Part shown: positions 2,330 through 49,029 of the stretch, one piece after another
Layout: each line of letters opens with the position of its first letter
Position numbering within the stretch: the first letter of the stretch is position 1
From: an uncultured Bacilli bacterium
GTDB taxonomy: Bacteria; Bacillota_I; Bacilli_A; RF39; UBA660
Reading direction: 5' to 3'
DNA length: 64,000 bases
Assembly: GCA_947581835.1 (NCBI GenBank)
Contig: CANPVV010000003.1
Location: 643 to 64,642, forward strand
Notes under the pieces: generated by a model
The model's input: only the letters and a program-made list of their open reading frames with translations
Database searches by the model: none
Told to the model about the DNA's origin: nothing
Position numbers and translations under genes: made by a program

Positions 2330-4483
2330 ATGGAAATAAATGAAGAAGTAATAACTTTTGAAGAGTTATATACAAAAATTAAAGAAAATATTCAAGATAC
2401 AGAAGAATTGTTAAAGATTAAAGAGGCATATCAGTTTGCAAAAGAGGTTCATAAAGGACAGAAAAGACTTACAGGAGAAGATTTTATAACTCATCCTTTA
2501 AGAGTGGCAGAAATAGTTAATGGACTAAATGTTGATAGTGTAACAATTATTGGAGCTTTATTGCATGAGGTTATGAATAGTGGTGAAATATCCCAAGCAG
2601 ATATAGCAGAAAAGTTTGGAGAGACTGTAGCAACCATCGTGGATTCTGTAACTAAAATTAATAAATTAGAGTTAGTTGATGATTCAGAGTATAGTGCAAT
2701 ATATTTAAGAAAAGTTTTGGTGGGACTTGCAACAGACGTAAGAGTTTTATTTATAAAATTAGCTGATAGATTACATAATATGCGAACTAATTATGTGATT
2801 GATCCAAAGAAACAAAAAGGAAAAGCTAATGAAACAACTGCGGTATTAATTCCTATCGCACATAGATTAGGAATTAATTCAATAAAAAGTGAGTTAGAAG
2901 ATTTATGTTTATATTATACAAAACCAGACGTGTATAATGATATTTTAGAAAAATTAAATGATAGTAGAGATTTACTTAATGCTGCTTTACAAGAGATGAT
3001 TGAAAGTATAACCGAAATATTACAGGAACAAGGGCTAAAATTTAAGATAAAGGGAAGAGTTAAAAGTGTACACTCAATTTATAATAAATTAGCAAGCGGA
3101 AAAAAATGGAATGAAATATATGATATTTTGGCTTTGAGAGTTATTTTAGATAAAGTTAGTGATTGTTATATGGCGGTGGGATTAGTACATTCTAAGTATC
3201 GACCAATACCTAAGAGATTTAAAGATTATATTGCGATGCCAAAAGCAAATATGTATCAAAGTTTACATACTACAATTTTTGGGGTTGATGGCTATTTGTT
3301 TGAAGTGCAATTTCGAACTTTTGAAATGGATGAGTTTGCTGAGAAAGGTATGGCATCTCACTGGTCTTATAAAGAGCATGGAACTAAAAAAGTACAGCAT
3401 ATTATGGAACAGAAATTGGAAATGTTTCGAAATATAATTGAGACAAATGAAGATCAAGATGACGTTTCATTTGAGGCCGACGTTAATAGTGATTTGCTCG
3501 CCGAAATGATTTATGTATTTACACCTAAAGGGGATGTCATGGAACTGCCTCGAGGTTCAACACCAGTTGATTTTGCTTATAGAATTCACTCCGATATTGG
3601 AGATAAAACCGTGGGAGCAATTGTAAATGATGCAATTGTGCCTTTAAATCAAGAACTTGAAAATGATGACATAGTAAAGATTAAAACTAATAGTAATGCT
3701 ACACCTAATAAAGATTGGTTAAACTTTGTAAAGACTAGTCAAGCGAAGAATAAAATTAAGTCATATTTTAGTAAACAAGAGAGAATTAATATGACTTTAA
3801 AAGGTAAAGAAATATTAGAAAAAGAACTTAGAAAAAGAAAATTAGCTTTTAATGAGGTAATGAAGGATGAGGCAATAAATAAGATATGTAAAGATTTAAA
3901 ACTTAATGATTTAGATGATATATATTTATCTATTGGAACACTTAGATATACGGCAGGTTTTATTATTAGTTTAACAGAAGCCTCTAAAGAGAGTTTAGAA
4001 GATGCGATAATTACAAGAGTAAATAGTCATGGAAATGAAAGTATTAGTTATAAAAATGATATTATTGTTTCGGGTATGGGAGATATTTTAGTAAATATTG
4101 CTAAATGTTGTAAGCCAGTTAAAGATGATGAAATTGTAGGTTTTATTACAAAAGGACAAGGAATAACTGTTCATAGAAAGAATTGCTTTAATATAAGTGA
4201 TGCGAAAGAAAGAATAATAGACGTTAGTTGGAATCCTAAGAGTGAAGGTATTTATTTAACAGATTTATATATAGTTACTGAGGCTAAGAAAAGTTATATT
4301 AGTGATATTATTGCAATATTTACAAAAAGAAATATTTATATAGATGAGTTAAAGACTAAAGAATATGATAATAGTATTGGTTATGAGGTTACTTTAAAAG
4401 TTAAAAATAAAGAAGAACTGGATAAAGTAATATTAGATTTAGAGAATTTATCATTTATTATAAGTGCAAGAAGAAATAAGTAA
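2330..4483 (+). CDS. relA: Bifunctional (p)ppGpp synthetase/hydrolase RelA/SpoT homolog
   Basis: 717 aa with an HD hydrolase motif (HPLRVAEIV..LLHEV), a synthetase core (YRPIPKRFKDYIAMPKANMYQSLHTT), and TGS and C-terminal ACT-like regions. Confidence 0.95.
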   Translation: MEINEEVITFEELYTKIKENIQDTEELLKIKEAYQFAKEVHKGQKRLTGEDFITHPLRVAEIVNGLNVDSVTIIGALLHEVMNSGEISQADIAEKFGETVATIVDSVTKINKLELVDDSEYSAIYLRKVLVGLATDVRVLFIKLADRLHNMRTNYVIDPKKQKGKANETTAVLIPIAHRLGINSIKSELEDLCLYYTKPDVYNDILEKLNDSRDLLNAALQEMIESITEILQEQGLKFKIKGRVKSVHSIYNKLASGKKWNEIYDILALRVILDKVSDCYMAVGLVHSKYRPIPKRFKDYIAMPKANMYQSLHTTIFGVDGYLFEVQFRTFEMDEFAEKGMASHWSYKEHGTKKVQHIMEQKLEMFRNIIETNEDQDDVSFEADVNSDLLAEMIYVFTPKGDVMELPRGSTPVDFAYRIHSDIGDKTVGAIVNDAIVPLNQELENDDIVKIKTNSNATPNKDWLNFVKTSQAKNKIKSYFSKQERINMTLKGKEILEKELRKRKLAFNEVMKDEAINKICKDLKLNDLDDIYLSIGTLRYTAGFIISLTEASKESLEDAIITRVNSHGNESISYKNDIIVSGMGDILVNIAKCCKPVKDDEIVGFITKGQGITVHRKNCFNISDAKERIIDVSWNPKSEGIYLTDLYIVTEAKKSYISDIIAIFTKRNIYIDELKTKEYDNSIGYEVTLKVKNKEELDKVILDLENLSFIISARRNK

Positions 4484-5308: not shown

Positions 5309-5548
5309 ATGCATATATTTGAAAATTTAGAGAATTTTTTAAGAGATAAAGATTATTATATAGATATATTTAAAAATACTATTCATGTGTATAATTATGA
5401 GACTTTAAAAAGTTTGACGGATAAAGAAATAGAATTAGAATTAAAAGAGTTTAATTTAATAATTAAGGGAGAAAATTTAGTAGTAAAAGAGATGGAGAAA
5501 CATGAAATATTAGTTAAGGGAAAAATACTTGAGGTGGTATTTAATTAA
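5309..5548 (+). CDS. yqfC: Sporulation protein YqfC (YabP/YqfC family)
   Basis: 79 aa. Family-like pattern (..IHVYNYETL....ELELKEFNLIIKGENLVVKEM...EILVKGKILEVVF). Its stop overlaps the start of the yqfD homolog. Confidence 0.8.
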   Translation: MHIFENLENFLRDKDYYIDIFKNTIHVYNYETLKSLTDKEIELELKEFNLIIKGENLVVKEMEKHEILVKGKILEVVFN

Positions 5549-6735
5549 TGAAAAGATACCTTAAAATAAAGATTATAACTGATAGAAAAAGTGAACTTTT
5601 AGTTAAACTTGATAGATTAAATATATATATGATAAATATTGTTTATCAAAATGATGGACTTATGATGGATATATTAAGGGATGATTTAAAGAGAATAAAG
5701 AAATATTTAATTAGTTATAAAGTTATAGTTATAGAAGAAAAGGGAATAGATAAGATTAAAAATAATTTAAAGAAAAATAGTTTAGTAATAGTAGGTCTTG
5801 TTTTTGGGTTAGTCTTATTTTTAGTGATAAATCGTTTAACTTTAAAAGTAAATGTAATTCATGAGAGTACAGAGATGCGAGAACTTATATTAAGTGATTT
5901 AGAAAAATATGGGGTTGTGCCTTTAAGCTTTAAGAAAAGTTATCAGGAATATGAAGAAATAATTGAAAAAATAAAGGAAGATCATAAAGATAAAATAGAA
6001 TGGTTAGAAATAGACGTAAAGGGAATGAATGTTAATGTTAGAGTTGAAGAGAGAATTATTAACGATTATCCAGTTAAAATAGGATTTTGTCATATTGTTG
6101 CTGATAAATCAGGAATAGTATCAAAAATATATACTAAAAAAGGAGTGGCAATGGTTACTATTAATGATTTTGTTAATAAGGGAGATATTTTAATTAGTGG
6201 AGAGATTAAATTAAATGAGGAAGTTAAAAATAATGTGTGTGCAAGTGGCGAGGTTAGAGCAGAGGTTTGGTATAAAGTTAAAAGTACTTATCCTTTAAAG
6301 TATAAAGAGGAAGAAAAAACAGGGAAAATGCGATATAATTTAATGATTAAAGATGGAGTTAAAGAACAGGTTTTATTAAAATCAAGAGTTAGGGATAAAC
6401 AAGTTCAGAATAAATTACTTTTTAAATTAGGGAGTTTTCAGGTATTTTTACAAAAAGAATATGAGATAAAAGTAGAAGATAAAATATATAAGGAAGAAGA
6501 AGCTTTAGAATTAGCTATGGAGAAAATTAGAGAGAAATTTAGGAATAATGGGGTTAAATTTAAGAAAATAATTGATGAAAAAGTATTGCAAAAAACTATA
6601 AATAATGATAATTTAGATATAGAAGTTTTTGTGGTGGTTGAAGAAGATATTGGGGTTAGTCAGAACTATGTAAGAGAGGCGGATAGTGATACAAGTGATA
6701 GCAAGAATAATGGAGATAATCGCTCAAGCAGTTGA
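5548..6735 (+). CDS. yqfD: Sporulation protein YqfD
   Basis: 395 aa with a single central TM segment. Overall architecture and position after yqfC are typical of YqfD. Confidence 0.85.
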   Translation: MKRYLKIKIITDRKSELLVKLDRLNIYMINIVYQNDGLMMDILRDDLKRIKKYLISYKVIVIEEKGIDKIKNNLKKNSLVIVGLVFGLVLFLVINRLTLKVNVIHESTEMRELILSDLEKYGVVPLSFKKSYQEYEEIIEKIKEDHKDKIEWLEIDVKGMNVNVRVEERIINDYPVKIGFCHIVADKSGIVSKIYTKKGVAMVTINDFVNKGDILISGEIKLNEEVKNNVCASGEVRAEVWYKVKSTYPLKYKEEEKTGKMRYNLMIKDGVKEQVLLKSRVRDKQVQNKLLFKLGSFQVFLQKEYEIKVEDKIYKEEEALELAMEKIREKFRNNGVKFKKIIDEKVLQKTINNDNLDIEVFVVVEEDIGVSQNYVREADSDTSDSKNNGDNRSSS

Positions 6736-24102: not shown

Positions 24103-24109
24103 AATAGTA

Positions 24110-24285
24110 CCTAAAGGTTATAGTCTATTTTACATAAAACCGACTATGAGATAATATTGGGGGAATAATTACATATGGAGTTGAATGCTGGTCTTGATTT
24201 GCCAGAATCCAGAAGTATGTATGTTTCTTACCACCTGCGAGTGCGCGGGCTTTTATCGACAGATAGACTTCTCCTTTGGGTTTTT
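24110..24285 (+). ncRNA. ssrS: Probable 6S RNA (SsrS/BsrA-like), ~176 nt
   Basis: Non-coding and GC-enriched. The 5' end pairs with the 3' end to close a rod: CCTAAAGG (24111-24118) with CCTTTGGG (24273-24280), AGTCTAT with ATAGACT, and ATAAAA with TTTTAT. There is an internal helix (TACATAT/GTATGTA), an apical hairpin (CTGG..CCAG), and an unpaired central region with a small 3'-side hairpin (CCTGCG/GCGCGG). It ends in TTTTT. It lies upstream of tcdA. Confidence 0.55.
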
Positions 24286-24314
24286 ATTTGCTATAATTTA
24301 GGGTGGTGGTAATT

Positions 24315-36801: not shown

Positions 36802-36916
36802 CTTTTTTCGTTATAATTATATCATAATAGTTTGTTTTTAGTAGCAATTAAGGCTTTTTTTGTCAGTTTATAGACAAAAATATAGAAAAATGATATAATT
36901 TTTGAGGGTGAAGAAA

Positions 36917-37285
36917 ATGCTTTATAGAGTAGGAATGTTTTGTAAACATTTTAAGGGAACTAATTTATTAGAAAAAAATATTTATCAGATTGAGGCTTTA
37001 GGGCTTAGAGGAAAAGATATAGGTGATAATGTAACTTATGTGGGTGAAGGAAATAAAGATACCGCGGATAATTTAGTGGTGTATGCGAATATTTTTCAGA
37101 ATAATAAGTTATTTGCAAGAGAGTATGAAGATTTGGCTTTTGTATTAGATAGTGATAAACAGATTGAGTATAGACAGAAATATAGAGTTGAACCTTTAAC
37201 AATAGAAGAGATAGAGATTATTAGAGATCCAAATTTTATTTTAGAAAAGAAAAGACTAGTAGAAGAAAAATTTAGAACAAGATAA
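36917..37285 (+). CDS. Hypothetical protein, possibly DUF1653-like
   Basis: ATG 36917 follows a GAGGGTGA RBS. The motif Y....CKHFKG is reminiscent of DUF1653 (Y.H.KG). This is a weak assignment. Confidence 0.45.
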   Translation: MLYRVGMFCKHFKGTNLLEKNIYQIEALGLRGKDIGDNVTYVGEGNKDTADNLVVYANIFQNNKLFAREYEDLAFVLDSDKQIEYRQKYRVEPLTIEEIEIIRDPNFILEKKRLVEEKFRTR

Positions 37286-37308
37286 AAAAGCCTAAGGGCT
37301 TTTTTTTT
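37284..37308. terminator. Bidirectional terminator between the DUF1653-like gene and lon
   Basis: AAAAAAGCC-TAAG-GGCTTTTTTTTT, a stem flanked by A and T runs. Confidence 0.6.
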
Positions 37309-39625
37309 AGAATAATTCTTCAAAGATTTCATTGTAATTATGAACTAAAATGATTTCCATTTCTTCACGAATTTTAGAAGGTATTTCTTCTAAATCTAAT
37401 TCATTTAAAGAAGGAATATAAACTTTTTTTAGATTGTTGTTGTAAGCACCAATTATTTTTTCTTTAATACCTCCAACTTTTAGAATATCACCATTTAAAG
37501 AGATTTCACCAGTAAATCCAAGAGTATTGCTAACAGGTTTATTTAAAATAAGACTTAGAATACTAGTAGTTATAGCAACTCCGGCGCTGGGGCCATCTTT
37601 TTTCATAGCACCTTCTAAAAAATGAAGATGGATATCTTTTAGATTAAAGAAAAAATCAGTTAGGTGATAATCTTTTTGGTGAGCTTTAATAAAACTTAGA
37701 GCAACCTCAGTTGATTCTTCCATAGTTTTACCAAGCATACCAGTAATTTTAATATTCCCCTTCCCTTCATAGATACAGGATTCAACTGGTATTACAATTC
37801 CCCAAGAACTGGCAACACCTAAAGCATTGATGCGACCTATATATGAAGTGTTTTTTAGATCAGTTTTATTATATTTAGGAATACCAAGATATTCTTTTAG
37901 TCTTACTTTACTTATTTTAGTACGACTGTTAATTTTACCTAAAACAACTAATTTGCGAAAGATTTTTTCAAGCATACGATATAAATCTCGAACTCCAGCC
38001 TCGGCGGTATAAGCTTCGATTAAATAAGAAAGCATTTCATCGCTTATCGAAATTATTTTGTTGTCTATTTTATTTTCGTCTAAAATTTTAGGAATTAAAT
38101 ATTTTTTGGCGATATCAATTTTTTCATAGTCAGTATAGCTAGATATATTGATTATTTCGAGACGGTCTTTTAAAGGGGACGGGATACTATCTAAGTTATT
38201 GGCAGTTAAAATAAAGAAGACTTTAGATAGATCAAAAGGTTCTTCAAGATAGTTATCGACAAATTCATTGTTTTGTTCTTTATCTAATATTTCTAAGAGA
38301 CTACTTGTGGGATCATCTTTATAATTAATAGTCATTTTATCTATTTCATCAATTAAAATAACGGGATTTTTACTGTTACACTTGCGAAGACCTTGGATAA
38401 TTTTACCGGGAGAAGAACCCATATAGGTACGTTTATGACCAATTAATTCGGAAGAATCATTTAGACCACCAACACTGATTTTATAAAATTTACGATTTAG
38501 GGCAGTCGCGATAGTTTTGGCAATACTAGTTTTACCAACTCCGGGAGGACCCACCAAACAGATAATGGGACTTTTTAAATCTTTGTTATTGTTTTTTAAA
38601 GAAACATATTCTAAGATACGATCCTTAATGGCAGTTAGACCATAGTGGGTATTATCAAGTTTATTTTTAATATCATCAAGATTGTAGTTTTCAAAAGTTT
38701 CTTTGTTCCAGGGAAGATTTAAAATCCAATCTAAATAATTTTTTAACATGGCATTTTCCGGAGAGATTTCGGTGGTGTATTCAAGTTTTTTGATTTCATT
38801 TAAAATCTTGGCATGAGTGGATTTAGGGATAGTTAGTTTAGATAAAGTCTCTTTGTAAGAGGCAATATCACTATTTTCATTTAAACCTAATTCTTGTTCA
38901 ATAATTTTAATTTTTTCTTTTAAGATAAATTCTTTTTGACTGGATTCTAAAGTATGAGTTAGTTCTTCTTCAATTTTTTCATCAAGTTTTAAGACTTCAA
39001 GTTCAATATTTAAATCTTTTAGAAGGTTTTTAGCACGATATAAAGCATTTATTTCTTCTAAATATTCAAGTTTTTTAGAAAAAGTTAGTGGCATAAAAGA
39101 ACAGATGGTATCAGTTAAAAGAGATAAGCTATCTAATGTTTTAATAGTGTTTAAGATACTGTTAGAAATATGATTTGATGATTTAACATAGGTAGTAGTT
39201 AGGTCATTTAGTTTTTTGATAAGAGCTTTTTTTTCAACTTCATCGATTTCAGGTAAATCAATTTTAGTTATTTTAGCTTCTAAGATATCATTGTTATCGG
39301 CGTTGTTATAAAATTTTAGAATACGAACACGAATAACACCTTTTATAGTTACCCGGACATTGCCATTGGGAAGTTCAATACGACTTTTTATTTTACCAAT
39401 AACCCCTACTTCGGGTAAATCATTTACTTCGGGATTTTCTTCAAGTTTATTTTTAGGAGTTATAACTAAAACCTCACGATTAAAGCTTTGAGTAGCAAGA
39501 CTTACGATATCTTTACTTAAATCATTATTTAGTTCAATTTTAACTTCTTGATTGGGGAGCAAGATTAGTCCTTTTAAGAGTATAACAGGTAGTATTTGTT
39601 CCAAAATAATCGCTCCTCCATTCAT
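37307..39625 (-). CDS. lon: ATP-dependent Lon protease
   Basis: N-terminal LON domain, Walker A GPPGVGKTS, and protease site DGPSAG. A GGAGGAG RBS inside the first codons suggests the true start is TTG at 39604 (MEQILPVILLKG...). Confidence 0.95.
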   Translation of the reverse strand: MNGGAIILEQILPVILLKGLILLPNQEVKIELNNDLSKDIVSLATQSFNREVLVITPKNKLEENPEVNDLPEVGVIGKIKSRIELPNGNVRVTIKGVIRVRILKFYNNADNNDILEAKITKIDLPEIDEVEKKALIKKLNDLTTTYVKSSNHISNSILNTIKTLDSLSLLTDTICSFMPLTFSKKLEYLEEINALYRAKNLLKDLNIELEVLKLDEKIEEELTHTLESSQKEFILKEKIKIIEQELGLNENSDIASYKETLSKLTIPKSTHAKILNEIKKLEYTTEISPENAMLKNYLDWILNLPWNKETFENYNLDDIKNKLDNTHYGLTAIKDRILEYVSLKNNNKDLKSPIICLVGPPGVGKTSIAKTIATALNRKFYKISVGGLNDSSELIGHKRTYMGSSPGKIIQGLRKCNSKNPVILIDEIDKMTINYKDDPTSSLLEILDKEQNNEFVDNYLEEPFDLSKVFFILTANNLDSIPSPLKDRLEIINISSYTDYEKIDIAKKYLIPKILDENKIDNKIISISDEMLSYLIEAYTAEAGVRDLYRMLEKIFRKLVVLGKINSRTKISKVRLKEYLGIPKYNKTDLKNTSYIGRINALGVASSWGIVIPVESCIYEGKGNIKITGMLGKTMEESTEVALSFIKAHQKDYHLTDFFFNLKDIHLHFLEGAMKKDGPSAGVAITTSILSLILNKPVSNTLGFTGEISLNGDILKVGGIKEKIIGAYNNNLKKVYIPSLNELDLEEIPSKIREEMEIILVHNYNEIFEELF

Positions 39626-39692
39626 ATAAAACAGTTTCTATTATAAATAATAAAGTAGGTTTTGTCTACTAAATTTGGCTAAAAATATAATT

Positions 39693-40715
39693 TTATTGCT
39701 CGTCTTTAAAGTCCTCAGTAAATTTAGGCCAAATACCTATTTTATCAGGCGTATGAGAAGGTAATTGATAAAGGTCATGACCTGGGAAATCATTGCCTTC
39801 GACTAAAACGGGACCAGATGGAGTAAAACAAACGTCCCAACCAATATAACGAATATGTTTTTCAACTAGACTGGCTTCTTTTACCATGTTAAGAGCATCT
39901 TCCCAAAAAGGAAATTTAAAACCTTTTATTAAAGCATTGGTTTTGGGATGACGTTCATATAAATTTTTCTTTTTATCAAGAGCTAAATCTTTTACTATAC
40001 CTGTTTTTTCATCTACCGGAGTTACCATACCTCCTTGATTAAAATTATCGACGTATTTACCATTACCTATCCGAAAATAAGCACAGATAACATGGGGTTT
40101 ATCTTGTTTATCTAAAATAGTTACAATTCGGACGGTATTGATAGAATCAGGATAGATAGAATTAAGTTCTTCAGATTGGGTTATAACTTCTTCTAAGATA
40201 AAATCACTACTCTTGGTGGTTAAATATTCATATATTTCTTCAGGGGTTTTATTATCAAGAGATATTTTTTCTATTCCTTTACCACAGGTGCCATCAATAG
40301 GTTTAGCCATAAAGGTGTGGTGTTTATTTATAAAGTTTAGAATATCTTTTTTAGAAGAAGAGTTAACATGAAGAAAATCTCTTTTGATATATTTAGAAAA
40401 TCTTTTATCAAATTCATATTTATTGGCGAAAATATAGGTATATTCTGGATCATTGTATTTTTTAATTAAGTCATTGTTACGACCACGAGTTAGATAGGTA
40501 TCCCTTTCAGCATCGGTTAGATTATACATTTCAAATAAATCATAGTCCATATAGCCAGCACCATATTTTAGAGCACATTTTCGCATATCATTAAAGATAG
40601 CTAAACGACTTTTATGGGTTTTTTTATGAATACTATTTATTTTTTCAAACATTCTTTGATAATTCATGTTTAATACTCTTTTAATTAAATATTTAATATT
40701 AGGCATATTATTCAA
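39693..40715 (-). CDS. ATP-grasp domain protein (sugar-transfer-associated ATP-grasp-like)
   Basis: 340 aa. Segments FMAKPIDGTCGKGIEKI, VRIVT, NQGGMVTPVD and GWDVCFTPSGPVLVEGN resemble ATP-grasp ligases of that family (from memory). Confidence 0.6.
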   Translation of the reverse strand: MNNMPNIKYLIKRVLNMNYQRMFEKINSIHKKTHKSRLAIFNDMRKCALKYGAGYMDYDLFEMYNLTDAERDTYLTRGRNNDLIKKYNDPEYTYIFANKYEFDKRFSKYIKRDFLHVNSSSKKDILNFINKHHTFMAKPIDGTCGKGIEKISLDNKTPEEIYEYLTTKSSDFILEEVITQSEELNSIYPDSINTVRIVTILDKQDKPHVICAYFRIGNGKYVDNFNQGGMVTPVDEKTGIVKDLALDKKKNLYERHPKTNALIKGFKFPFWEDALNMVKEASLVEKHIRYIGWDVCFTPSGPVLVEGNDFPGHDLYQLPSHTPDKIGIWPKFTEDFKDEQ

Positions 40716-40781
40716 CTACTTTCTTTTATTATTATAGCAAATATTGGATTTTTAATAAAGAGAAATGAGTTATTTCACATA

Positions 40782-41237
40782 TTAAAAAGTGATGGGATCA
40801 TCACTTTTTAAATCGGGATTTAATAATATAATTTCTTTACGAGTCATATGAACAATTCTTTCTTTAGCAACTCCATATTTCTCTTGATAAGTTTTATATT
40901 CTTTTAAAAGATTTGCTAGCTTGGTGGAAGATAATTTCTTAGTTGTTCTTCGGGCTTGTTTTAATTCATTAAATTTAGTTATTGTTAATTTAGTATTTAA
41001 TTGGGCATAACTATCTTCATATATTACTGTTTCATTAGGATTATCAGAATTAATATAATAATTATAATTATGATATAATTGATGCATTTTTCCAGCAGTT
41101 TTATCTAAAGCAATAACTTCTATATAATTATTGTTGATTGAAGCAATTAACATTGGATGTTTAATTTCTGATATAACATTCAATTGATATTTAACTTTAA
41201 GCCATAATATTTGTCCTATTTCTAATTCTTCGGTCAT
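40782..41237 (-). CDS. Hypothetical protein; putative toxin partner of the upstream Panacea-domain antitoxin
   Basis: 151 aa. Its start overlaps the stop of the DUF4065 gene by 4 nt (ATGA). No recognisable family. It has a beta-rich N-terminal half and a basic helical C-terminal half. Confidence 0.45.
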   Translation of the reverse strand: MTEELEIGQILWLKVKYQLNVISEIKHPMLIASINNNYIEVIALDKTAGKMHQLYHNYNYYINSDNPNETVIYEDSYAQLNTKLTITKFNELKQARRTTKKLSSTKLANLLKEYKTYQEKYGVAKERIVHMTRKEIILLNPDLKSDDPITF

Positions 41238-41716
41238 AATTTTAAAGCAGCGATTAAACCTTTATATCTTTGCTTATATTCATCAATATATTGTTCTAAA
41301 TTCATTATTGGCGCATTAAAAGTTTCTTTGCTTAATCTAAGCCACTCAGGGTCTTCATGGGTTATGTCAATTAATTCTTCATAAGTAGCATTTTTTAGAG
41401 AATCATAAATTTTATCTAAAAATATTTTAATTTGAGATGGTATTTTTACTGTTTCTTTTTGAGATACCATTAGAGGATAAGAGGATATAATGCTTTCAAT
41501 TACAGGTCCATTGGCATAAGCAACAAAATTATCTGAAATTAACTTTGTTTCATATTTAGCAAGATAAACCACTTGGGCTAAAAATAAATATTTATTTAAT
41601 CGAGCATTGCCTTCATAAAATTTATGATTATTTTTTAGGACAACATTATTATTAAATAAAATTCGATTAGGATCTTTGGCTAAAAAATATTTAGCAACAA
41701 TTTCAGCATTTAACAT
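41234..41716 (-). CDS. Panacea/DUF4065 (SocA/GepA-like) domain protein, putative antitoxin
   Basis: 160 aa. The pattern VAKYFL....(LNKYLFLAQVVYLAKYETKLISDNFVAYANGPVIESI) is typical of DUF4065 (KL.KLLY.a....l......l....F.Aw..GPV). AGGAGGT RBS. Confidence 0.75.
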   Translation of the reverse strand: MLNAEIVAKYFLAKDPNRILFNNNVVLKNNHKFYEGNARLNKYLFLAQVVYLAKYETKLISDNFVAYANGPVIESIISSYPLMVSQKETVKIPSQIKIFLDKIYDSLKNATYEELIDITHEDPEWLRLSKETFNAPIMNLEQYIDEYKQRYKGLIAALKL

Positions 41717-41755
41717 TTTTACCTCCTTTTTAATAATATTTTTAGATATATTTTT

Positions 41756-43003
41756 TTAATTATTGTCTTTTAATATTTCAAGAGCTTTATGCATACGCAT
41801 ATCATATTTAACTACTTCATCTGAACCATAAGCTTTTAGTAATTCTTCAACTGAAATACCATAGTTATCGGCCATTTCTTTAGTTTTTTCTTCAACTTCT
41901 TTTGGAGTAAAGTCGATTTTTTCAGTATCGGCGATAGTTTCTAGTAAATAGCGATATTTAACTCTTTTAGTAGCCTCAGGTTCCATTTGTTCATGAAGTT
42001 TCTCATGAGTCATACCAGTTATTTTGGCATAATCATCTATTTTAATTCCTTGCATATTTAATTGCTCTTCAAATTGGTGAATCATGCGATGGACTTCTTC
42101 ATCAATTATTTCGGCATTTATTTCAACTTGCATATTACTTGATGCTTTAGAAAGACATTCTTCAATGAAGGCATCATCAAGTTCAGTTTGTTTTCTTTCA
42201 AGTAAAACTGATTCAACTTCTTTTTCTAATTCTTCTTCAGTTTTAATATCTTCATAACCTAAATCTTTGTAAAAGTCTTCATTAATTTCTGGAATTATTC
42301 TTTCTTTAATTTCTTTGATAGTAACATTAAATTTAACAGCTTTACCAGCAAGATCGGCAACATAATTTTCTGGGAAAGTTAGATTTAATTCTTTAGTATC
42401 ACCAACAGCCATACCAATTAGACCATCTTCAAAACCAGGAATAAAACTGTTAGAGCCTATTTCTAAAGGATAGTTCTCCCCTTTGCCACCATCAAGAGGT
42501 TTATCATCAACAAAGCCCTCAAAATCAATAACGGCAGTATTACCTTTTTCAATAGTTCCAGATTCTTTAGGAGCTATTTCGGCAAGTTGCTCTTGAAGTT
42601 TTTTAATTTCAGTTTTTATTTCTTCTTTAGTTACTTTAGCTTTTTCCTTTTTTAAGCCTAAGTTTTTATATTCACCTAAAGTTACTTCAGGTTTACTTAT
42701 TAAAGTAAATTTATAAGTTACATGATCTTTATCAATATTTACAATATCAATGGTAGGTTCAACAACCGGGGTTATTTTAGCTTCATCTAAAGCTTTTTGA
42801 TAAGCTTCGTTTATAGCGTTATCAACGGCATCCATATAAAGAGTTTCAATTCCCATTTTTTTAATAAAAATATCTTTAGGAGCAGTACCTTTACGAAAAC
42901 CTTCAATTTTTACTTCTTTGTTTTTCTTTTTATAGGCTTTATCTAAAGCTTTTTCCCAAGTTTCTCCTTCAATAGTTATTTCAATTGTTTTTACGTTTTT
43001 CAT
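41756..43003 (-). CDS. tig: Trigger factor
   Basis: 415 aa with an N-terminal ribosome-binding motif (GFRKGTAP) and a central FKBP PPIase domain (IDFEGFVDDKPLDGG...). Confidence 0.95.
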   Translation of the reverse strand: MKNVKTIEITIEGETWEKALDKAYKKKNKEVKIEGFRKGTAPKDIFIKKMGIETLYMDAVDNAINEAYQKALDEAKITPVVEPTIDIVNIDKDHVTYKFTLISKPEVTLGEYKNLGLKKEKAKVTKEEIKTEIKKLQEQLAEIAPKESGTIEKGNTAVIDFEGFVDDKPLDGGKGENYPLEIGSNSFIPGFEDGLIGMAVGDTKELNLTFPENYVADLAGKAVKFNVTIKEIKERIIPEINEDFYKDLGYEDIKTEEELEKEVESVLLERKQTELDDAFIEECLSKASSNMQVEINAEIIDEEVHRMIHQFEEQLNMQGIKIDDYAKITGMTHEKLHEQMEPEATKRVKYRYLLETIADTEKIDFTPKEVEEKTKEMADNYGISVEELLKAYGSDEVVKYDMRMHKALEILKDNN

Positions 43004-43070
43004 TTATTTAATTCCTTTCAAAATCTTTAATTAATATAACATAATTTTTAGGTTTTTACAAGTCTAAATA

Positions 43071-43727
43071 TTATGTAAGTAAATTAATTAAAGACATAAA
43101 TTTATCACTAAAAATAAAGACAAGAGCCATACTTCCTACTAAGAAGGGACCAAAGGGAACTTCTTTATTTTTACTTAGCATAATAGATGCTAAAGCATAA
43201 GGAAGAGCTAAGAGAGAAGAAAATATAATAGAGATTAATCCTAGTCTTAGACCAAGAATAGTTCCAATTACAAAGGATAGTTTAATATCGCCGCCACCTA
43301 GAGCTTCTCTTTTAAATATTTTTTTACCAATTAAGCCTACAATAAACATGAAAGCCATTAAAAATAAGCCACTTAGAATACTTAAACCCATAGTTTTTAA
43401 ATCAAAATAATAAGCTTTTAAAGAAAGAATGATTAGACTTGAAATAACTAAAGGACTATCTAAAATAATTAAATATTTAAAGTCAGTTACAAAGATAATT
43501 ATTACTAAAGCACTAACTATGACAGAGGCAAAAAACTCATAACTAAAGTCAAAATAATAGTAACTTATTAAAAGAGCAACGGAGTTTAGAATACCAATAA
43601 AGAGATTTAAAATCCAAGAATTGGGAGTAACCTCAGGTATATCAGGTATTAATAAAGGTAATTTCTCAGCGATTAGAGAATAAGCAAGACCTAGAGTAAA
43701 ACCTATTAAAAATATCATTATAATCAT
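43071..43727 (-). CDS. Prepilin (type IV leader) peptidase, A24 family, without the N-terminal zinc-ribbon region
   Basis: 218 aa polytopic protein with the A24 motif ALGGGDIKL and a C-terminal PFGPFL. Confidence 0.85.
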   Translation of the reverse strand: MIIMIFLIGFTLGLAYSLIAEKLPLLIPDIPEVTPNSWILNLFIGILNSVALLISYYYFDFSYEFFASVIVSALVIIIFVTDFKYLIILDSPLVISSLIILSLKAYYFDLKTMGLSILSGLFLMAFMFIVGLIGKKIFKREALGGGDIKLSFVIGTILGLRLGLISIIFSSLLALPYALASIMLSKNKEVPFGPFLVGSMALVFIFSDKFMSLINLLT

Positions 43728-43736
43728 ATTATCACC

Positions 43737-45281
43737 CTATCTAATTTCCCCATATAGACTAAACATAGGAATAACAACAGCAAGTATTATTATACCAACA
43801 ATTAAAGCAAGTAAGACTATCATGATGGGTTCTAAGAAACTTTTTAAATTGGTTACTCGACTTTTATGTAAGTCATTATAATAGCTAGCTACTTTTTCAA
43901 GCATTAATGAGAGTTCACCAGTTGATTCACCTGTTACTATCATGTAGTAAGCAACGTCAGGAACACACCATTTATTATAGAAAGATAAAGATATTTTTTC
44001 GCCACGAGCAATATTACTCATAGTTTCTAACATTATATCTTTATATACTTCATTATTGGTTATATTAGTTAGTATTTCCATAGAACTGGTAATATAAACA
44101 CTATTTCTTAGAAGAGAGGCAAAAGTTTTAGTAAAAATAGTTAGTTCATGATAGATAATTATTTTACCAAAAAATGGAATTTTCATACCGATAGTTTGAA
44201 TTAGTTTGCGAAATAGTTTGGATGATTTATATAAGAAAAGAAGTGTTAGAATAACTATTAGTGCAATGAGTAAAATAAGATTAAGATGAGTTGTTATATA
44301 TTTACTTAGATTAATAATACTTAGAGTAAAACCACTTACAGTTATACCAGCTTGATTGTAGACTTTAATAAATTCAGGGATAACATAGACCATAATAAAA
44401 GTTAAGACAGCTAGAGCAAAAACAATTAAGATAGTGGGATAGATTATAGCACTAAGCATTTCTTTGCGAGTTTTATCTATTTCGGTATAGTATGAGGCCA
44501 TATCATCAAGAGTTTTAATTAATTCACCAGTAGCTTCCGCAGATTTAATCATATTGATTAATAAAGGAGGAAAGGTTTTTCCTTGATTTTCAAGAGCTTT
44601 ACTAAATGATTCACCTAAAGTTAAATCATAGGAGATAGCCCGATATAATTTACTTTTAGTAGGGTCTTTAGAGGCTTGTTTAGTCATAATATTAATTGTA
44701 TCATTTAGAGTGATACCAGCTTTTAGATAGGTAGCAACTTGAGTTAACCAAAATATTAAGTCTTTAACACTTAATTCTTTTTCTGAATCAAACCCTAGTT
44801 TTTTTAAGAGATTAGCTATTTTAGCTTTTTTAATACTGTAGACGTCAATCCCTTCATTAGCAAGAAAGTTATGAAGAGTTACTTTATTAGTAGCACTCAT
44901 CATACCTTTTACTTTTTTATTGTTTTGATCAGTTCCATAATAGTAATAGTAAGATTTAACTACTTTGCGAGATTTTATTTCTTTTTGCATTTCTCTTATT
45001 AGTTCTTGTTTTTCATAGGCAATGTGTTTGCGTTCTTCTAAAGACATTACAATAGGTTCTTCTTCTTTTTTAGTTTGAGTTTCTTCTTCAGTGTTTAGAT
45101 TAACACTTTGTCTTTCAATACGATTAAATTCTTTACGAGCTTTAGAATAAGTAATCATATTATAAAATACGTCAAAAAAGACAAATTTTAGACCTATAAA
45201 GACGTGTTTAAAGAAATCTATTACGAGAAGTATAGGAGCTAATAAAATTGTATATATATTTAATTTTTGGTTAGGTTTCAT
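43737..45281 (-). CDS. Type II secretion system F / PilC / ComGB-family platform protein with an N-terminal extension
   Basis: Two GspF repeats (...AGITLNDTI...LGESFSKAL...PPLLINMIKSAEATGEL... and ...ARGEKISLSF...VAYYMIVTGESTGELSLML...). An extra ~130 aa, including a TM segment, sits at the N-terminus. Confidence 0.85.
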   Translation of the reverse strand: MKPNQKLNIYTILLAPILLVIDFFKHVFIGLKFVFFDVFYNMITYSKARKEFNRIERQSVNLNTEEETQTKKEEEPIVMSLEERKHIAYEKQELIREMQKEIKSRKVVKSYYYYYGTDQNNKKVKGMMSATNKVTLHNFLANEGIDVYSIKKAKIANLLKKLGFDSEKELSVKDLIFWLTQVATYLKAGITLNDTINIMTKQASKDPTKSKLYRAISYDLTLGESFSKALENQGKTFPPLLINMIKSAEATGELIKTLDDMASYYTEIDKTRKEMLSAIIYPTILIVFALAVLTFIMVYVIPEFIKVYNQAGITVSGFTLSIINLSKYITTHLNLILLIALIVILTLLFLYKSSKLFRKLIQTIGMKIPFFGKIIIYHELTIFTKTFASLLRNSVYITSSMEILTNITNNEVYKDIMLETMSNIARGEKISLSFYNKWCVPDVAYYMIVTGESTGELSLMLEKVASYYNDLHKSRVTNLKSFLEPIMIVLLALIVGIIILAVVIPMFSLYGEIR

Positions 45282-45335
45282 ATAATCACTCTACTTTAGT
45301 TAAATTATAGCATAATTTTTAGTATTATAAAATAA

Positions 45336-45369
45336 CAAAAAGAAAGAATGAAGAAAAAACTTCATTCTT
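45336..45369 (-). terminator. Rho-independent terminator separating the large paralog genes from the pilC-like gene
   Basis: 10-bp stem AAGAATGAAG (45344-45353)/CTTCATTCTT (45360-45369). On the minus strand it is followed by TCTTTTTGTT. An extended -10 (TGCTATAAT, minus strand) lies just downstream. Confidence 0.55.
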
Positions 45370-45393
45370 AAGATTAGACTGTAAGAGGTAAAA

Positions 45394-47166
45394 TTAGTCT
45401 AATTGAACTACGTATGGGTTAGTACTTGTACCCTTTTCGCCACTTGTACCATCTCCATCTGTAGTAAACTTGGTATTAGCTTTGAGATTTATTACTGGGC
45501 GCACACCTATATCAGTGTCAGACACGTTGTCGCCGTAGAGGTGACCATCACCATATACGCAGGATACACTAGCATAACCGCCGTTAAAGCTATGCGGAGA
45601 CATTGTCCAGTATTCTGCACCTGTATATAGCCAGTATCCGTAGTTATTAGCATTTGTTCCTCCTGCAAATTCTACTTCATCGGCTGTGATTAGGCCTACT
45701 GGATATGTTAATCTGCCATTTCCAACACCTTGTTTATCTCCATCCATTGTAAACAAGTCATTTGCACTTTGTGTACAATTAAATGTTGGTATATGTTTTT
45801 TTACCGTTCTTATATATGGTCCGTAATATGTTTGGGTGGTTCCAAAACCATATTTAGTTTTATCTGGTTTAGAAGTTGCACTTACTCCACTATATTGATA
45901 TGGTGTTCTATCATTGCAAAATCCTACACTTCCATCTAGTTGGTCTGTATAAGCAGTCAAGTTTGTACTATACCAATTTTCTATTGCTGTTTTAATAGTG
46001 CTTGGATTCGTATTTGTATGTGCATCTGTATAATTTCCTGATGTGTCTCCATACATATATCCTACATATTTATTACTCTTAGCAATTTCATTAAATGTAT
46101 TTATATTTATTTGACTATCTATTTTATCTGCCCATCTCCCATCAGTTGGTTTATTACTTCCAGAATAAATCAATCTTATGCTTCCATTTCCATTTATTCG
46201 GATTATTCGCCACCACTTATTAGCAAATTTTACCCAATTATTATTTACTGTTCCTCGGTAGTAATATGTTGTCCCAAAATCGTCTTCTCCACTATATAAA
46301 CCACTTTCTGATGAATCACAATCGCCATCGGTATGAGTTTCATTATTTGTATTAGGCTCGCAAACTATTTTATTAAATTCACTTTCATTTAGTGTAGATA
46401 ATGTACTCGTATCAATCCCTAAATCTGCTAAAGTTTTTTCTGATGGAATAACTTTATAATATAAATAACAAGCTGTGCCAGTTTTAGTTAAATTATCAAT
46501 TATTAATTGCTCTGTTTCTTTATTCCAACTTGGAATTGCATTATTACTGCAAATGCTTTTTTCAGCATCAATAGTATATCCCGTTTGGGGAATATCACCA
46601 TTTTCTATTTTTTTATATGTTCCTTCTTCATTTTCTATATAGGCTGCTAAAATATTTATTTTAGGAGTTTTATTATTTTCTTCTAATTTTATATTACTTT
46701 TAAATTCTCCTTCTTTATTTTTATTATTATAATCTAATATTAGATAATAATAGTTTGTTTTACTAGTAACAGAAGAATTTATATATTCTTCTTCTAATAG
46801 ATTTACTGTTTGTTCTTTTTCTTCTTTGTTTATTTTTCCTTCATTTAGTGATTTTAGTTTTTCTATTTTGGATTTACTTTTTATTAATTCATTTGATTTG
46901 TATATTTTATAGTTTATATTGTCATATAAACTATTGGTTATATTCCAATTTAAATTATAACCAATTAATTCATTATCTCCAGTTGCTATAACTTTAATAG
47001 TTAATATATCTTTATTTAAATTACTTTCAACTTTAATATCACTATTTTTAATATTAAGAGATAAAGTATTAAATTTTATATTTTCTTTAAATATATTATT
47101 TTTAATAATAAATATAGAAACTATACTTATTAAAATAATAATTATTAAAATATTTTTATTTTTCAT
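45394..47166 (-). CDS. Large secreted/anchored protein, paralog B (590 aa)
   Basis: N-terminal hydrophobic anchor. It shares three blocks with the upstream paralog: ATGDNELIGYNLNW; DDFGTTYYYRGTVNNNWVKFANKWWRIIRINGNGSIRLIY; and GFCNDRTPY...GLITADEV...YWTMSP...GVRPVINLK. Confidence 0.6.
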   Translation of the reverse strand: MKNKNILIIIILISIVSIFIIKNNIFKENIKFNTLSLNIKNSDIKVESNLNKDILTIKVIATGDNELIGYNLNWNITNSLYDNINYKIYKSNELIKSKSKIEKLKSLNEGKINKEEKEQTVNLLEEEYINSSVTSKTNYYYLILDYNNKNKEGEFKSNIKLEENNKTPKINILAAYIENEEGTYKKIENGDIPQTGYTIDAEKSICSNNAIPSWNKETEQLIIDNLTKTGTACYLYYKVIPSEKTLADLGIDTSTLSTLNESEFNKIVCEPNTNNETHTDGDCDSSESGLYSGEDDFGTTYYYRGTVNNNWVKFANKWWRIIRINGNGSIRLIYSGSNKPTDGRWADKIDSQININTFNEIAKSNKYVGYMYGDTSGNYTDAHTNTNPSTIKTAIENWYSTNLTAYTDQLDGSVGFCNDRTPYQYSGVSATSKPDKTKYGFGTTQTYYGPYIRTVKKHIPTFNCTQSANDLFTMDGDKQGVGNGRLTYPVGLITADEVEFAGGTNANNYGYWLYTGAEYWTMSPHSFNGGYASVSCVYGDGHLYGDNVSDTDIGVRPVINLKANTKFTTDGDGTSGEKGTSTNPYVVQLD

Positions 47167-49029
47167 TTAATTTACCTCCACTTCAAATGGATTATTTGCT
47201 GTACCGTCTCCGCCAGCTTTAAATGGTGTCTCGGCTTTTAAATTTATTACTGGGCGTATACCAATACCAGTGGTATTAACGCTGTCGTAGGAGATAGCTC
47301 CAAGATCATACACAAAAAATATCTGGGCATATTGGCTAGAACTAACATCAAAGCTATATGGTGATATTGTCCAATATTTGTTATTTGTATATAAATAATA
47401 ACCTGTATTTGATGTAAGTTCATACGCTCCTGCATACATTACTTCATCCGCTGTGATTAACCCTACCGGATTTTCTAATGCTTGATTACCATTTTCATCG
47501 TCATTGGTTATTGTAAATAAATCATTTTGCTGTGGACACTTAAATATTGGTTTATGTGTTTTAAAAGCCCTTATATATGCTCCATAAGACGTTGTAATAT
47601 TTTTATAACCGTGACCACTAGTATCCAATTTAGAAGTAGCTAAACTTCCATCATAAGGAGTTCTATCATTACAAAAGCCTGTTGCTCCATCTATATCATT
47701 TTCATATTGTTGTAAATTTTCTAAATACCAAGAATCTAACTCTGTAAGTATTTTACTTTTAGTGGCATTTGTATGGGCATCTGCATATTTAGTTGCTCCT
47801 GTAGTTCCATATTTAAATCCAACATAAGTATTATCAGAATAATGACTATTGTCATTATATAGAATATTTGACTTAGCTAAACCATTTCCATTTGCATCAG
47901 TTCCAACGTAAATTAATCTTATAGTTCCGTTTCCATTTATTCTTACTATTCGCCAAAATTTATCTGCAAATTTTACCCAATTATTTTCTCCTTTTCCTCT
48001 AAAGTAATAAGTATCTCCATAGTCATCTTGTCCTTTGCAAAGTAAGGCTTTATTACCTTCTATATCAGTTATATTTGTTGCCTCTCCTGTGGTTTCATCT
48101 ATTGTTGGGCAATCATTTTCAGATAGGGTTAGATTAGGAAATTTTGCAAAGGTATCTTTTGCGGTTGTTCTATTTTTAAAATATAGTTCACACATGGTTC
48201 CGGATTTGGTATAGTTACTAAAACTTAGTTTATTAGTGTTATAATTCCAATTTGGAATTGTTTCATTATTGCAAGTAGTTCTTTCCATGTCTAAAATTTG
48301 ATCTTTGGGTAATGTCTCATCTGTTTGTTCTTCATATGAACCATCTTCTTGTTGGACATAGACAGCCATTTCAATATCGGCTTCTATATTACTTGCTTCT
48401 ATTTTAACTTCACCGCTAAAGGTTTGTTCACTATCCTTATTTTGAGATTTGTCTTCATTTGGATATTCTAAAACTATGTAATAGTAGGCTGTTTCGCCTG
48501 GATTTGGGAGAGAATTTATAAATTGGTCTTGGGCTATATATACTTTTTTTGTATCTGCACTAGTTTCAATTGTTGCTTCCCCTACTGCTGTTCCTAGTTG
48601 GTCTATGTTGTTTATGCTGCATTCTTCATAAGCCATAATACCTTTACTGACTACTTTTTGTTTTTTATTACAGTTGGCTGATATATTTAGTTCAGTATTT
48701 GGTTTATCTGATTTATAAACTTTTAAATTCAGAGAAGTAATTAAATTGTTTGTTCCTTCCCAGTATATATTAAAAGGAATTAGTTCATTATCGCCGGTTG
48801 CAGTTACTTCTAAATATGAGACTATTTTATGTCCGGGAAGCATATCGGGACTATCAATTTCTATATTACCTTTTGACGTAACAGTTGAATTTTTAATTGC
48901 TGTTGCAGTTGTTCCTTTGGTTAATGCTCCATCACCTTTAGTTATGTTTCTACCTGTAAAATAGGCAAAAGTTAGACTTATGCCAATTAATAATATAAGA
49001 GTATATACTCCCACTTTTTTCTTATCCAT
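47167..49029 (-). CDS. Large secreted protein, paralog A (620 aa), with a TasA/CalY-class (SipW-type) N-terminal signal
   Basis: The N-terminus MDKKKVGVYTLILLIGISLTFAYFTGR resembles SipW-dependent signal peptides (..GGGTFAYFSD in camelysin). A beta-rich N-domain follows (PGHKIVSYLEVTATGDNELI). The C-terminal ~300 aa are paralogous to 45394-47166. Confidence 0.6.
   Translation of the reverse strand: MDKKKVGVYTLILLIGISLTFAYFTGRNITKGDGALTKGTTATAIKNSTVTSKGNIEIDSPDMLPGHKIVSYLEVTATGDNELIPFNIYWEGTNNLITSLNLKVYKSDKPNTELNISANCNKKQKVVSKGIMAYEECSINNIDQLGTAVGEATIETSADTKKVYIAQDQFINSLPNPGETAYYYIVLEYPNEDKSQNKDSEQTFSGEVKIEASNIEADIEMAVYVQQEDGSYEEQTDETLPKDQILDMERTTCNNETIPNWNYNTNKLSFSNYTKSGTMCELYFKNRTTAKDTFAKFPNLTLSENDCPTIDETTGEATNITDIEGNKALLCKGQDDYGDTYYFRGKGENNWVKFADKFWRIVRINGNGTIRLIYVGTDANGNGLAKSNILYNDNSHYSDNTYVGFKYGTTGATKYADAHTNATKSKILTELDSWYLENLQQYENDIDGATGFCNDRTPYDGSLATSKLDTSGHGYKNITTSYGAYIRAFKTHKPIFKCPQQNDLFTITNDDENGNQALENPVGLITADEVMYAGAYELTSNTGYYLYTNNKYWTISPYSFDVSSSQYAQIFFVYDLGAISYDSVNTTGIGIRPVINLKAETPFKAGGDGTANNPFEVEVN

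Follow-up and report, generated by a model that had tools for sequence, protein, structure and literature searches.

The 64,000-nucleotide (nt) stretch of an uncultured Bacilli bacterium analysed here (contig CANPVV010000003.1; hereafter the window) carries two overlapping genes on its minus strand, at positions 40782–41716, between tig, which encodes trigger factor, and a gene for an ATP-grasp protein. We propose that these genes, panA and panT, form a type II toxin-antitoxin (TA) module of the PanAT kind, in which a Panacea-domain antitoxin is combined with a toxin candidate of the MazF/PemK fold, and put the probability of this reading at about 0.7.

The panA gene and its predicted antitoxin

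Residues 40–125 of PanA match the Pfam family SocA_Panacea (PF13274) with an E-value of 4.7e-12 and 47.3 bits, above the curated cut-off of 25.7. This bears out an earlier reading made from the letters alone (the original prediction), which had named the upstream gene a Panacea (DUF4065) protein. PanA also matches phrog_1281 (E 7e-17). A sequence search of PDB gave no match, and the SocA equivalog of NCBIfam (NF047745) scored 23 bits against a cut-off of 190, below threshold. The same prediction had described the genes as translationally coupled and the pair as beginning 39 nt past tig without an intervening terminator, and both descriptions hold: the start codon of panT lies on the stop codon of panA in a 4-nt ATGA overlap, and the 39-nt spacer between tig and panA has no predicted structure (0 kcal/mol) and no terminator-like site. 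A strong Shine-Dalgarno sequence, AAGGAGG, stands five nt ahead of the panA ATG. The pair is present as a single copy within the window.

The PanT family and its predicted fold

The PanT protein of the window found nothing above threshold in Pfam, NCBIfam or PADLOC, and had only a weak match (E 1.1e-5) to phrog_13386, whose function is unknown. An exact look-up of the protein returned one short contig only. Homologues of PanT number 442 in a protein collection clustered at 90%, and the family comprises about 92 clusters at 50% identity. The ratio of nonsynonymous to synonymous substitution rates (dN/dS) has a median of about 0.27 for panA and panT alike, which indicates purifying selection. 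Because of these homologues and this selection, both open reading frames (ORFs) are real genes and not chance ORFs.

Two AlphaFold2 models of PanT were compared with known structures. Model 1, based on 29 close homologues, has a predicted local distance difference test score (pLDDT) of 77, and its 12 best PDB matches are MazF toxins; in a search of BFVD its best matches were phage PemK/MazF toxins (E 1.7e-3, probability 1.0). Model 2, based on 62 more diverse sequences, has a pLDDT of 93.8 and a predicted TM-score (pTM) of 0.87. A Foldseek search of PDB with model 2 returned MazF, Kid and CcdB structures at all ranks from 1 to 42. The top 18 matches have a probability of 1.00, root mean square deviations of 3.4–4.9 Å over about 126 aligned columns, and TM-scores normalised to the target (TMt) mostly of 0.61–0.68, with one nuclear magnetic resonance model at 0.56. 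These models predict that PanT belongs to the MazF/PemK/Kid structural superfamily, within which it is highly divergent.

Individual members of the family were also scanned with Pfam. PemK_toxin (PF02452) matched five of 49 diverse PanT members at E below 1 (best 2.7e-4) and was the sole Pfam family matched by more than two of them. The best matcher, P0187, is 31% identical to the window PanT over its full length (E 3e-17), and its residues 4–112 are colinear with positions 2–101 of the 109 in the PemK_toxin profile, at 21.6 bits with a cut-off of 23.1. The gathering score was reached neither by the window PanT nor by any of the 49 scanned members, and PanT would best be described as a superfamily relative of MazF/PemK below the level of Pfam membership. 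In addition, a MazF/Kid/EndoA profile was made from four sequences; it recovered the PDB entries of MazF, Kid and EndoA at E 1e-43 to 1e-52. Alignment of the PanT family with this profile by hhalign was weak (E 0.014) and colinear over 101 columns, pairing GQILWLKV with GDLIWVDF, H27-P28 with R29-P30 of E. coli MazF, K46/T47 with T52, and DSYAQLN with DGVALADQ. The GQvLWLkv...HPmLI pattern of the PanT N-terminus resembles the MazF/PemK motif GDi.wvdf...RPvvV. By itself the sequence evidence for a link with MazF is marginal. Because it combines with the structural result, we place PanT in the MazF/PemK/CcdB superfamily, and judge it nearer to MazF than to CcdB.

The original prediction had seen in the 151-amino acid (aa) partner an N-terminal half rich in beta strands and a helical tail, in agreement with the AlphaFold2 model, and had called it unclassifiable. 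The latter description is superseded by the MazF/PemK fold of the model and by the transitive sequence link to PemK_toxin; the structure-model search that it had recommended is the one in which MazF, Kid and CcdB took every rank down to 42. Its proposal of a new PanT family survives in part, as a sequence family without a curated profile, and does not extend to a new fold.

Candidate active site and C-terminal extension

The catalytic residues of MazF are an Arg where strand 2 begins and a Thr where strand 3 ends (R29 and T52 in E. coli MazF). In the PanT model, His27-Pro28 lies at the start of strand 2 and position 46/47 at the end of strand 3. The alignment of 62 PanT sequences has His at position 27 in 59 and Arg in one, and Pro at position 28 in 61. 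The hydroxyl residue is a Ser or Thr at 46 in 33 of the 62 and a Thr at 47 in 23. Because of the MazF alignment and the strand positions in the model, we regard His27-Pro28 together with the hydroxyl residue at 46/47 as a candidate active site, in which the His could substitute chemically for the Arg of MazF. The near-invariant residues of the family are G8-Q9, H27-P28, E69, S76, Y114 and N140. PanT has about 30 extra C-terminal residues, modelled as a strand and a helix; this extension contains a conserved R/K127-x-V-H/Y-M motif and the near-invariant N140, neither having a counterpart in MazF.

Pairing, distribution and mobility of the module

Flanks were examined in 52 loci, from 44 species-representative genomes and 8 metagenome contigs, and pairing in the 51 loci, from these genomes and metagenome contigs, that include sequence upstream of PanT. 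The genome scan used alignment A1 (A2 being too divergent), and its 44 loci are a lower bound biased towards close relatives. Recurrence of the partner's homologues beside DUF4065 genes had been proposed as a check on the original prediction, and it was found throughout: in all 51 loci the gene just before PanT encodes a PanA homologue. The two genes overlap by 4 nt in most orthologous loci and by 1 nt in a few. Even in the most divergent pair examined (L057), whose two proteins each share only about 31% identity with their window counterparts, the gene upstream of PanT is a Panacea gene by Pfam. In four loci (L025, at about 3990–4444, L029, L039 and L042) the PanT frame is intact and has no ATG, GTG or TTG at the expected start; these orthologues may begin at a non-canonical codon (ATT or ATA) or be translated by ribosomes that re-initiate once past the stop codon of panA.

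The 44 module-bearing genomes are all metagenome-assembled genomes (MAGs) of uncultured gut Bacilli, Tenericutes or Mollicutes, with a few mislabelled bins, and the PanT family was found solely in metagenome-derived sequence (MAGs and metagenome contigs). Judged by their immediate neighbours, the 44 species genomes fall into 34 neighbourhood groups, and no additional gene accompanies the pair in all of them. Most of the neighbours are housekeeping genes, usually co-oriented with the pair and without integrases, and they do not form defence islands.

Ten loci with unrelated flanks (L005, L016, L017, L019, L020, L021, L023, L027, L033 and L046), which belong to one PanAT subfamily, have a conserved promoter of their own, TTTACA-17 nt-TAAAAT with a TG extension. 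This promoter (TTTACA, 17 nt, TGATAAAAT) lies about 60 nt upstream of panA, and most of the loci that bear it also keep a 3' motif, AAAGTAACTAATCTTTTTT, in the first 25 nt or so past panT. To judge from this conservation, the promoter and the 3' motif mark the boundaries of a mobile unit. The window copy has neither the conserved promoter nor the conserved 3' motif of this subfamily. In sum, the module is strictly paired and mobile, and panA-panT behaves as an autonomous module.

Carriage by phages or plasmids was considered in view of the PHROG matches, and was not supported. A tblastn search with PanT gave no match among the INPHARED phages and the PLSDB plasmids, and a scan of IMG/VR viral contigs revealed no relative of the module. 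The PADLOC-DB v2 models matched PanA, PanT and the ATP-grasp protein with 0 families.

Insertion between tig and the ATP-grasp gene

The three closest relatives by trigger factor (L054, L055 and L056, with tig 85, 80 and 80% identical) have the order tig-ATPgrasp_ST-Lon-MurF, with the ATP-grasp gene directly after tig and the pair absent. Synteny extends further in L054 and L056, with T2SSF and prepilin peptidase genes upstream of tig, and L054 also has Ddl past MurF. On the tig side, homology between the window and the empty sites continues as far as the stop codon of tig; on the other side it resumes within about 10 nt past the panT stop codon, inside a hairpin (Table 1). The 3' half of this hairpin is homologous to a small hairpin and T-run directly after tig in the three relatives, and from this homology the hairpin is probably the former tig terminator. 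The TATAAT element before the ATP-grasp gene, with its preceding G, does not vary among the window and the three empty sites. The insert comprises the leader, panA and panT, about 976 bp, and has a G+C content of 24.4%, as against about 29.5% in the genes on either side. No target-site duplication or flanking repeats were seen when the aligned junctions were inspected, though no repeat search was run. Compared with these relatives, then, the window carries an insertion that follows the tig stop codon and precedes the tig terminator hairpin, and only the pair was inserted, since all three relatives have tig-ATPgrasp-lon without it.

The original prediction had taken the pair and the ATP-grasp gene together for an insertion occupying the place of clpX, in the expectation of a tig-clpX-lon order. 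This was right for the pair itself, which has clean junctions with respect to the empty sites, and wrong for the ATP-grasp gene, which is ancestral in all three. There is no clpX among the window ORFs of about ClpX size, nor between tig and lon in any relative examined; the expected gene order is inapplicable to this clade. The closeness of the Lon protease had been thought meaningful as well. No tig, ATP-grasp gene or lon was found in the examined flanks of the 52 loci, and the adjacency of lon is an accident of the landing site.

The order tig-ATPgrasp-lon-murF without clpX is itself conserved in the clade, so that the ATP-grasp enzyme adjoins two protein-quality-control genes. In L055 an Amidoligase_2 gene lies just upstream of tig.

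Toxin-biased decay

In five genomes (L034, L047, L050, L051 and L052) nonsense or frameshift mutations interrupt panT, in the region near 4000–4450, and three of the five have several lesions. PanA is intact in four of these genomes; panA of L051 has an in-frame TGA. No genome among those examined has a broken PanA beside an intact PanT. The decayed loci look like orphan-antitoxin remnants, and decay biased towards the toxin is what a toxin-antitoxin relationship predicts. Reading of TGA as Trp was considered as the cause of the broken panT frames and is ruled out by the TAA and TAG codons and the frameshifts.

Comparison with known systems

The closest known systems are PanAT modules with a MazF-like PanT. 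Kurata et al. (2022, PNAS; PMC8832971) described PanT clusters T5, T6 and T17 as MazF/PemK-like, and many of these MazF/PemK-like PanTs are recognisable solely by HHpred. The PanTs of Pseudomonas moraviensis and Bifidobacterium ruminantium are inhibitors of protein synthesis that are neutralised by PanA and form a complex with it (PMC8832971). In the NetFlax network, standalone Panacea proteins neutralise toxins by direct contact, and MazF/PemK is among the commonest folds (PMC10440598). The window module resembles such systems in having a standalone ('noNTD') Panacea gene first with a start/stop overlap of a few nt, a toxin candidate without a conserved-domain match that is structurally near EndoA/PemK/MazF, and a mobile two-gene unit conserved across species. 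The adjacency by which Kurata et al. recognised pairs (same strand, no more than 100 nt apart) is present here as the 4-nt overlap. The window module differs from such systems in that this toxin family occurs only in MAGs of uncultured gut Bacilli/'Tenericutes', and in the His at the position of the MazF Arg and the 30-residue C-terminal strand-helix extension.

With MazEF, PemIK and Kis-Kid the module shares the SH3-like barrel and C-terminal helix of the PanT model (TMt mostly 0.61–0.68 to MazF-mt1, SaMazF and EndoA, and 0.66 to Kid), the order of antitoxin then toxin, and a presumed arrest of translation. In contrast to these systems, the antitoxin is a Panacea protein rather than an AbrB/SpoVT or ribbon-helix-helix MazE, PemI or Kis, with no apparent DNA-binding domain for autoregulation; PanT is only 10–15% identical to MazF structures and falls short of the PemK_toxin cut-off, and it has His where MazF has its catalytic Arg. 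SocAB of Caulobacter (type VI), whose SocA is the founding Panacea/DUF4065 protein, has a PF13274 antitoxin as well, but PanA lies far below the SocA equivalog cut-off and its partner is MazF-like rather than SocB. Whereas SocA is a ClpXP adaptor that degrades the toxin, direct binding is more likely here, as in type II PanAT. As to CcdAB, the gyrase poison system of the F plasmid, the CcdB fold is among the lower-ranked matches of the PanT model; however, CcdB ranks below MazF and Kid, there is no Pfam CcdB signal and the antitoxin is unrelated.

The pairing of PanA with a MazF-like toxin is thus already published and partly validated (PMC8832971). No published name for this PanT family was found in the sources searched. 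It is well supported that PanT represents a sequence family that is new, within a kind of type II TA system that is already known, with the proviso that the 88 clusters of Kurata et al. are known to us by accession and not by sequence. Because it occurs only in metagenome-derived sequence and matches no curated profile, the family probably lies outside the RefSeq-based published sets.

Proposed mechanism and alternative explanations

In this lineage the mobile unit, about 976 bp long, came to lie behind the tig stop codon and ahead of the tig terminator hairpin, and it arrived without the promoter that it has in other genomes. Because that promoter is missing and nothing terminator-like lies between tig and the module, we infer that the window copy is probably expressed by read-through from tig. 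PanA would neutralise PanT through direct binding. When PanA is broken down or its synthesis stops, as might happen upon phage infection or another stress, PanT may be released, and by analogy with its fold and with validated PanA:MazF-like pairs the free protein would be an endoribonuclease that shuts translation down. His27-Pro28 would take the place of the catalytic Arg-Pro of MazF at the start of strand 2, and the Ser/Thr at 46 or 47 that of the catalytic Thr at the end of strand 3. The scheme predicts a PanT that is toxic and has RNase activity, its direct binding by PanA, a trigger for its release, and transcription of the module together with tig.

Several points weigh against it. Toxicity and RNase activity, like neutralisation and complex formation, are all inferred. 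The window PanT itself has no Pfam PemK match, its profile-profile match with MazF is weak, and a search of PDB sequences with the PanT family profile gave no MazF chain, only a chance-level tryptophanyl-tRNA synthetase (TrpRS; E 0.01) and filaggrin. A His stands at the position of the canonical catalytic Arg, and the chemistry or the target may differ. Some panT pseudogenes could be assembly errors of the MAGs, most plausibly in the single-lesion L034 and L052. No promoter of its own is recognisable for the window copy, and the argument for read-through is soft, as there are no terminator-like sites in the whole of 39500–43300, where only 1.5 would be expected by chance. Among published candidates, the MazF-like PanT of Flavobacterium xanthum was not toxic in E. 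coli, and that of Chryseobacterium bovis was toxic but not neutralised (PMC8832971).

The module might serve in phage defence by abortive infection, with Panacea as the infection sensor, rather than as a selfish addiction cassette. Such a role would not conflict with the molecular mechanism set out above, and we consider it unlikely but a genuine possibility. The authors of NetFlax proposed a sensor role for Panacea and linked TA systems to defence (PMC10440598), both proteins have weak-to-moderate PHROG matches, and the distribution of the module is patchy and mobile; yet the PADLOC models match neither protein, the phage, plasmid and viral-contig collections hold no relative, and the neighbours are mostly housekeeping genes rather than defence islands. 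More speculatively, the His-for-Arg exchange and the extension could define a branch of MazF with a different target or chemistry (a tRNA or rRNA site, or a non-nuclease activity), with Panacea as sensor of infection, the pair then being an abortive-infection system, so far uncharacterised, that only uncultured gut Bacilli possess; we would give little credence to this combination. It is also improbable that PanT, while the toxin of a PanAT module, is something other than an mRNA interferase, be it a gyrase poison like CcdB, an enzyme with a tRNA or rRNA target, or a protein acting through its extension. The PanT model does match CcdB structures (probability 0.66–0.94, TMt 0.60–0.65), the Arg of MazF has become His in 59 of 62 sequences, and N140 and the R/K127-x-V-H/Y-M motif are foreign to MazF. 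Against this, MazF and Kid fill the ranks through 25 and the first CcdB comes at rank 26, the Pfam matches are to PemK_toxin and not CcdB, the His-Pro and the hydroxyl residue align with both catalytic positions of MazF, and validated MazF-like PanTs inhibit translation.

Two further readings carry less weight. The pair could be a non-toxic, vertically inherited operon of gut Bacilli, such as a regulator and its partner, whose position varies through genome rearrangement. Some predicted PanT candidates proved non-toxic in the study of Kurata et al. (PMC8832971), the pair is usually co-oriented among housekeeping genes without integrases, and the family seems to occur only in a single broad clade of MAGs from uncultured Bacilli/'Tenericutes'. 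We nevertheless hold this to be very unlikely, given a pair that is missing, with clean junctions, from an otherwise perfectly syntenic site in the three closest relatives, 34 contexts in 44 species, 10 loci that carry their own promoter (and mostly their 3' end) into different flanks, decay that hits the toxin only, and a classic toxin fold beside a domain known almost entirely from antitoxins. Lastly, the idea put forward in the original prediction, that the partner is a toxin unrelated to known families and founds a new PanT fold, is almost certainly mistaken. In its favour are the lack of a Pfam, NCBIfam or PADLOC match for the window PanT and of a PDB match by sequence profile, but structure comparison and transitive sequence evidence place PanT in the MazF/PemK superfamily. 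A type II PanAT module with a MazF/PemK-fold toxin candidate remains our preferred reading.

Layout of the locus and other features of the window

The coordinates of the locus are collected in Table 1. The true start of the ATP-grasp gene is probably the ATG at 40706, giving a protein of 337 aa, rather than the TTG at 40715, because the former aligns with the start codon of its relatives. An exact look-up of the window ATP-grasp protein returned no record.

Table 1. Features of the panA-panT locus and its flanks in the window, with the ATP-grasp genes of the three relatives that lack the pair
Feature	Position	Strand	Remarks
tig (trigger factor), 415 aa	41756–43003	-	ancestral gene upstream of the insertion; homologues carry Trigger_N/FKBP_C/Trigger_C
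Module leader, 39 nt	41717–41755	-	Shine-Dalgarno AAGGAGG at 41722–41728; absent from empty sites L054–L056
panA, 160 aa	41234–41716	-	standalone Panacea antitoxin, no extra N-terminal domain; domain at nt 41342–41599
ATGA overlap	41234–41237	-	panT start codon on panA stop codon; translational coupling
panT, 151 aa	40782–41237	-	toxin candidate; MazF/PemK-like fold of model
panT core, beta-barrel and C-terminal helix	~residues 5–121 (nt 40875–41225)	-	predicted structure
panT family-specific C-terminal extension	residues 122–151 (nt 40785–40874)	-	family alignment and model
panT near-invariant His27-Pro28	nt 41154–41159	-	alignment column counts
AT-rich hairpin across panT stop codon	40749–40788	-	fold -6.3 kcal/mol, z -3.8
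Extended -10 element TGcTATAAT before ATP-grasp gene	40731–40739	-	ancestral flank, outside module
ATPgrasp_ST gene	39693–40715	-	PF14397, E 7.9e-50; ancestral downstream neighbour
lon, 772-aa ORF	37307–39625	-	ancestral neighbour; Lon domains in L054–L056 orthologues at same position
ATP-grasp gene of L054	3826–4839		
ATP-grasp gene of L055	2506–3477		
ATP-grasp gene of L056	6450–7460		

Between lon and murF a 127-aa ORF without a Pfam family lies at 36902–37285 on the plus strand, opposite to its neighbours; L054 has an unannotated 151-aa ORF between lon and murF, likewise on the strand opposite to its neighbours. Upstream of tig, positions 43071–49029 (minus strand) hold genes for a prepilin peptidase (Peptidase_A24) and T2SSF/PilC-like proteins and ORFs of 590 and 620 aa, which resemble a cluster of the type IV pilus or competence-like kind; its prepilin peptidase and T2SSF genes are conserved in L054 and L056. 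The sole Rfam family above its gathering score in the window is 6S RNA (RF00013, 48.9 bits), at 24105–24286 on the plus strand. A gene for the stage IV sporulation protein YqfD is located at 5548–6735 (plus strand), and the module-bearing relative L001 has SpoIID and SpoIIID. These genes suggest that the uncultured 'Tenericutes-like' gut Bacilli concerned, which are low in GC (28%), form spores.

Significance

With this module the Panacea network gains a well-delimited family that had no name before; its members come from an unstudied clade of gut Bacilli that are uncultured and low in GC. The module leaves the current picture of PanAT systems unchanged, and its main value lies in correcting the claim of a new fold. 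The insertion is unusually clean, in that the occupied and empty sites differ by two genes between a stop codon and a terminator. The exchange of Arg for His, together with the conserved C-terminal extension, provides a natural variant for asking which features of the MazF active site matter.

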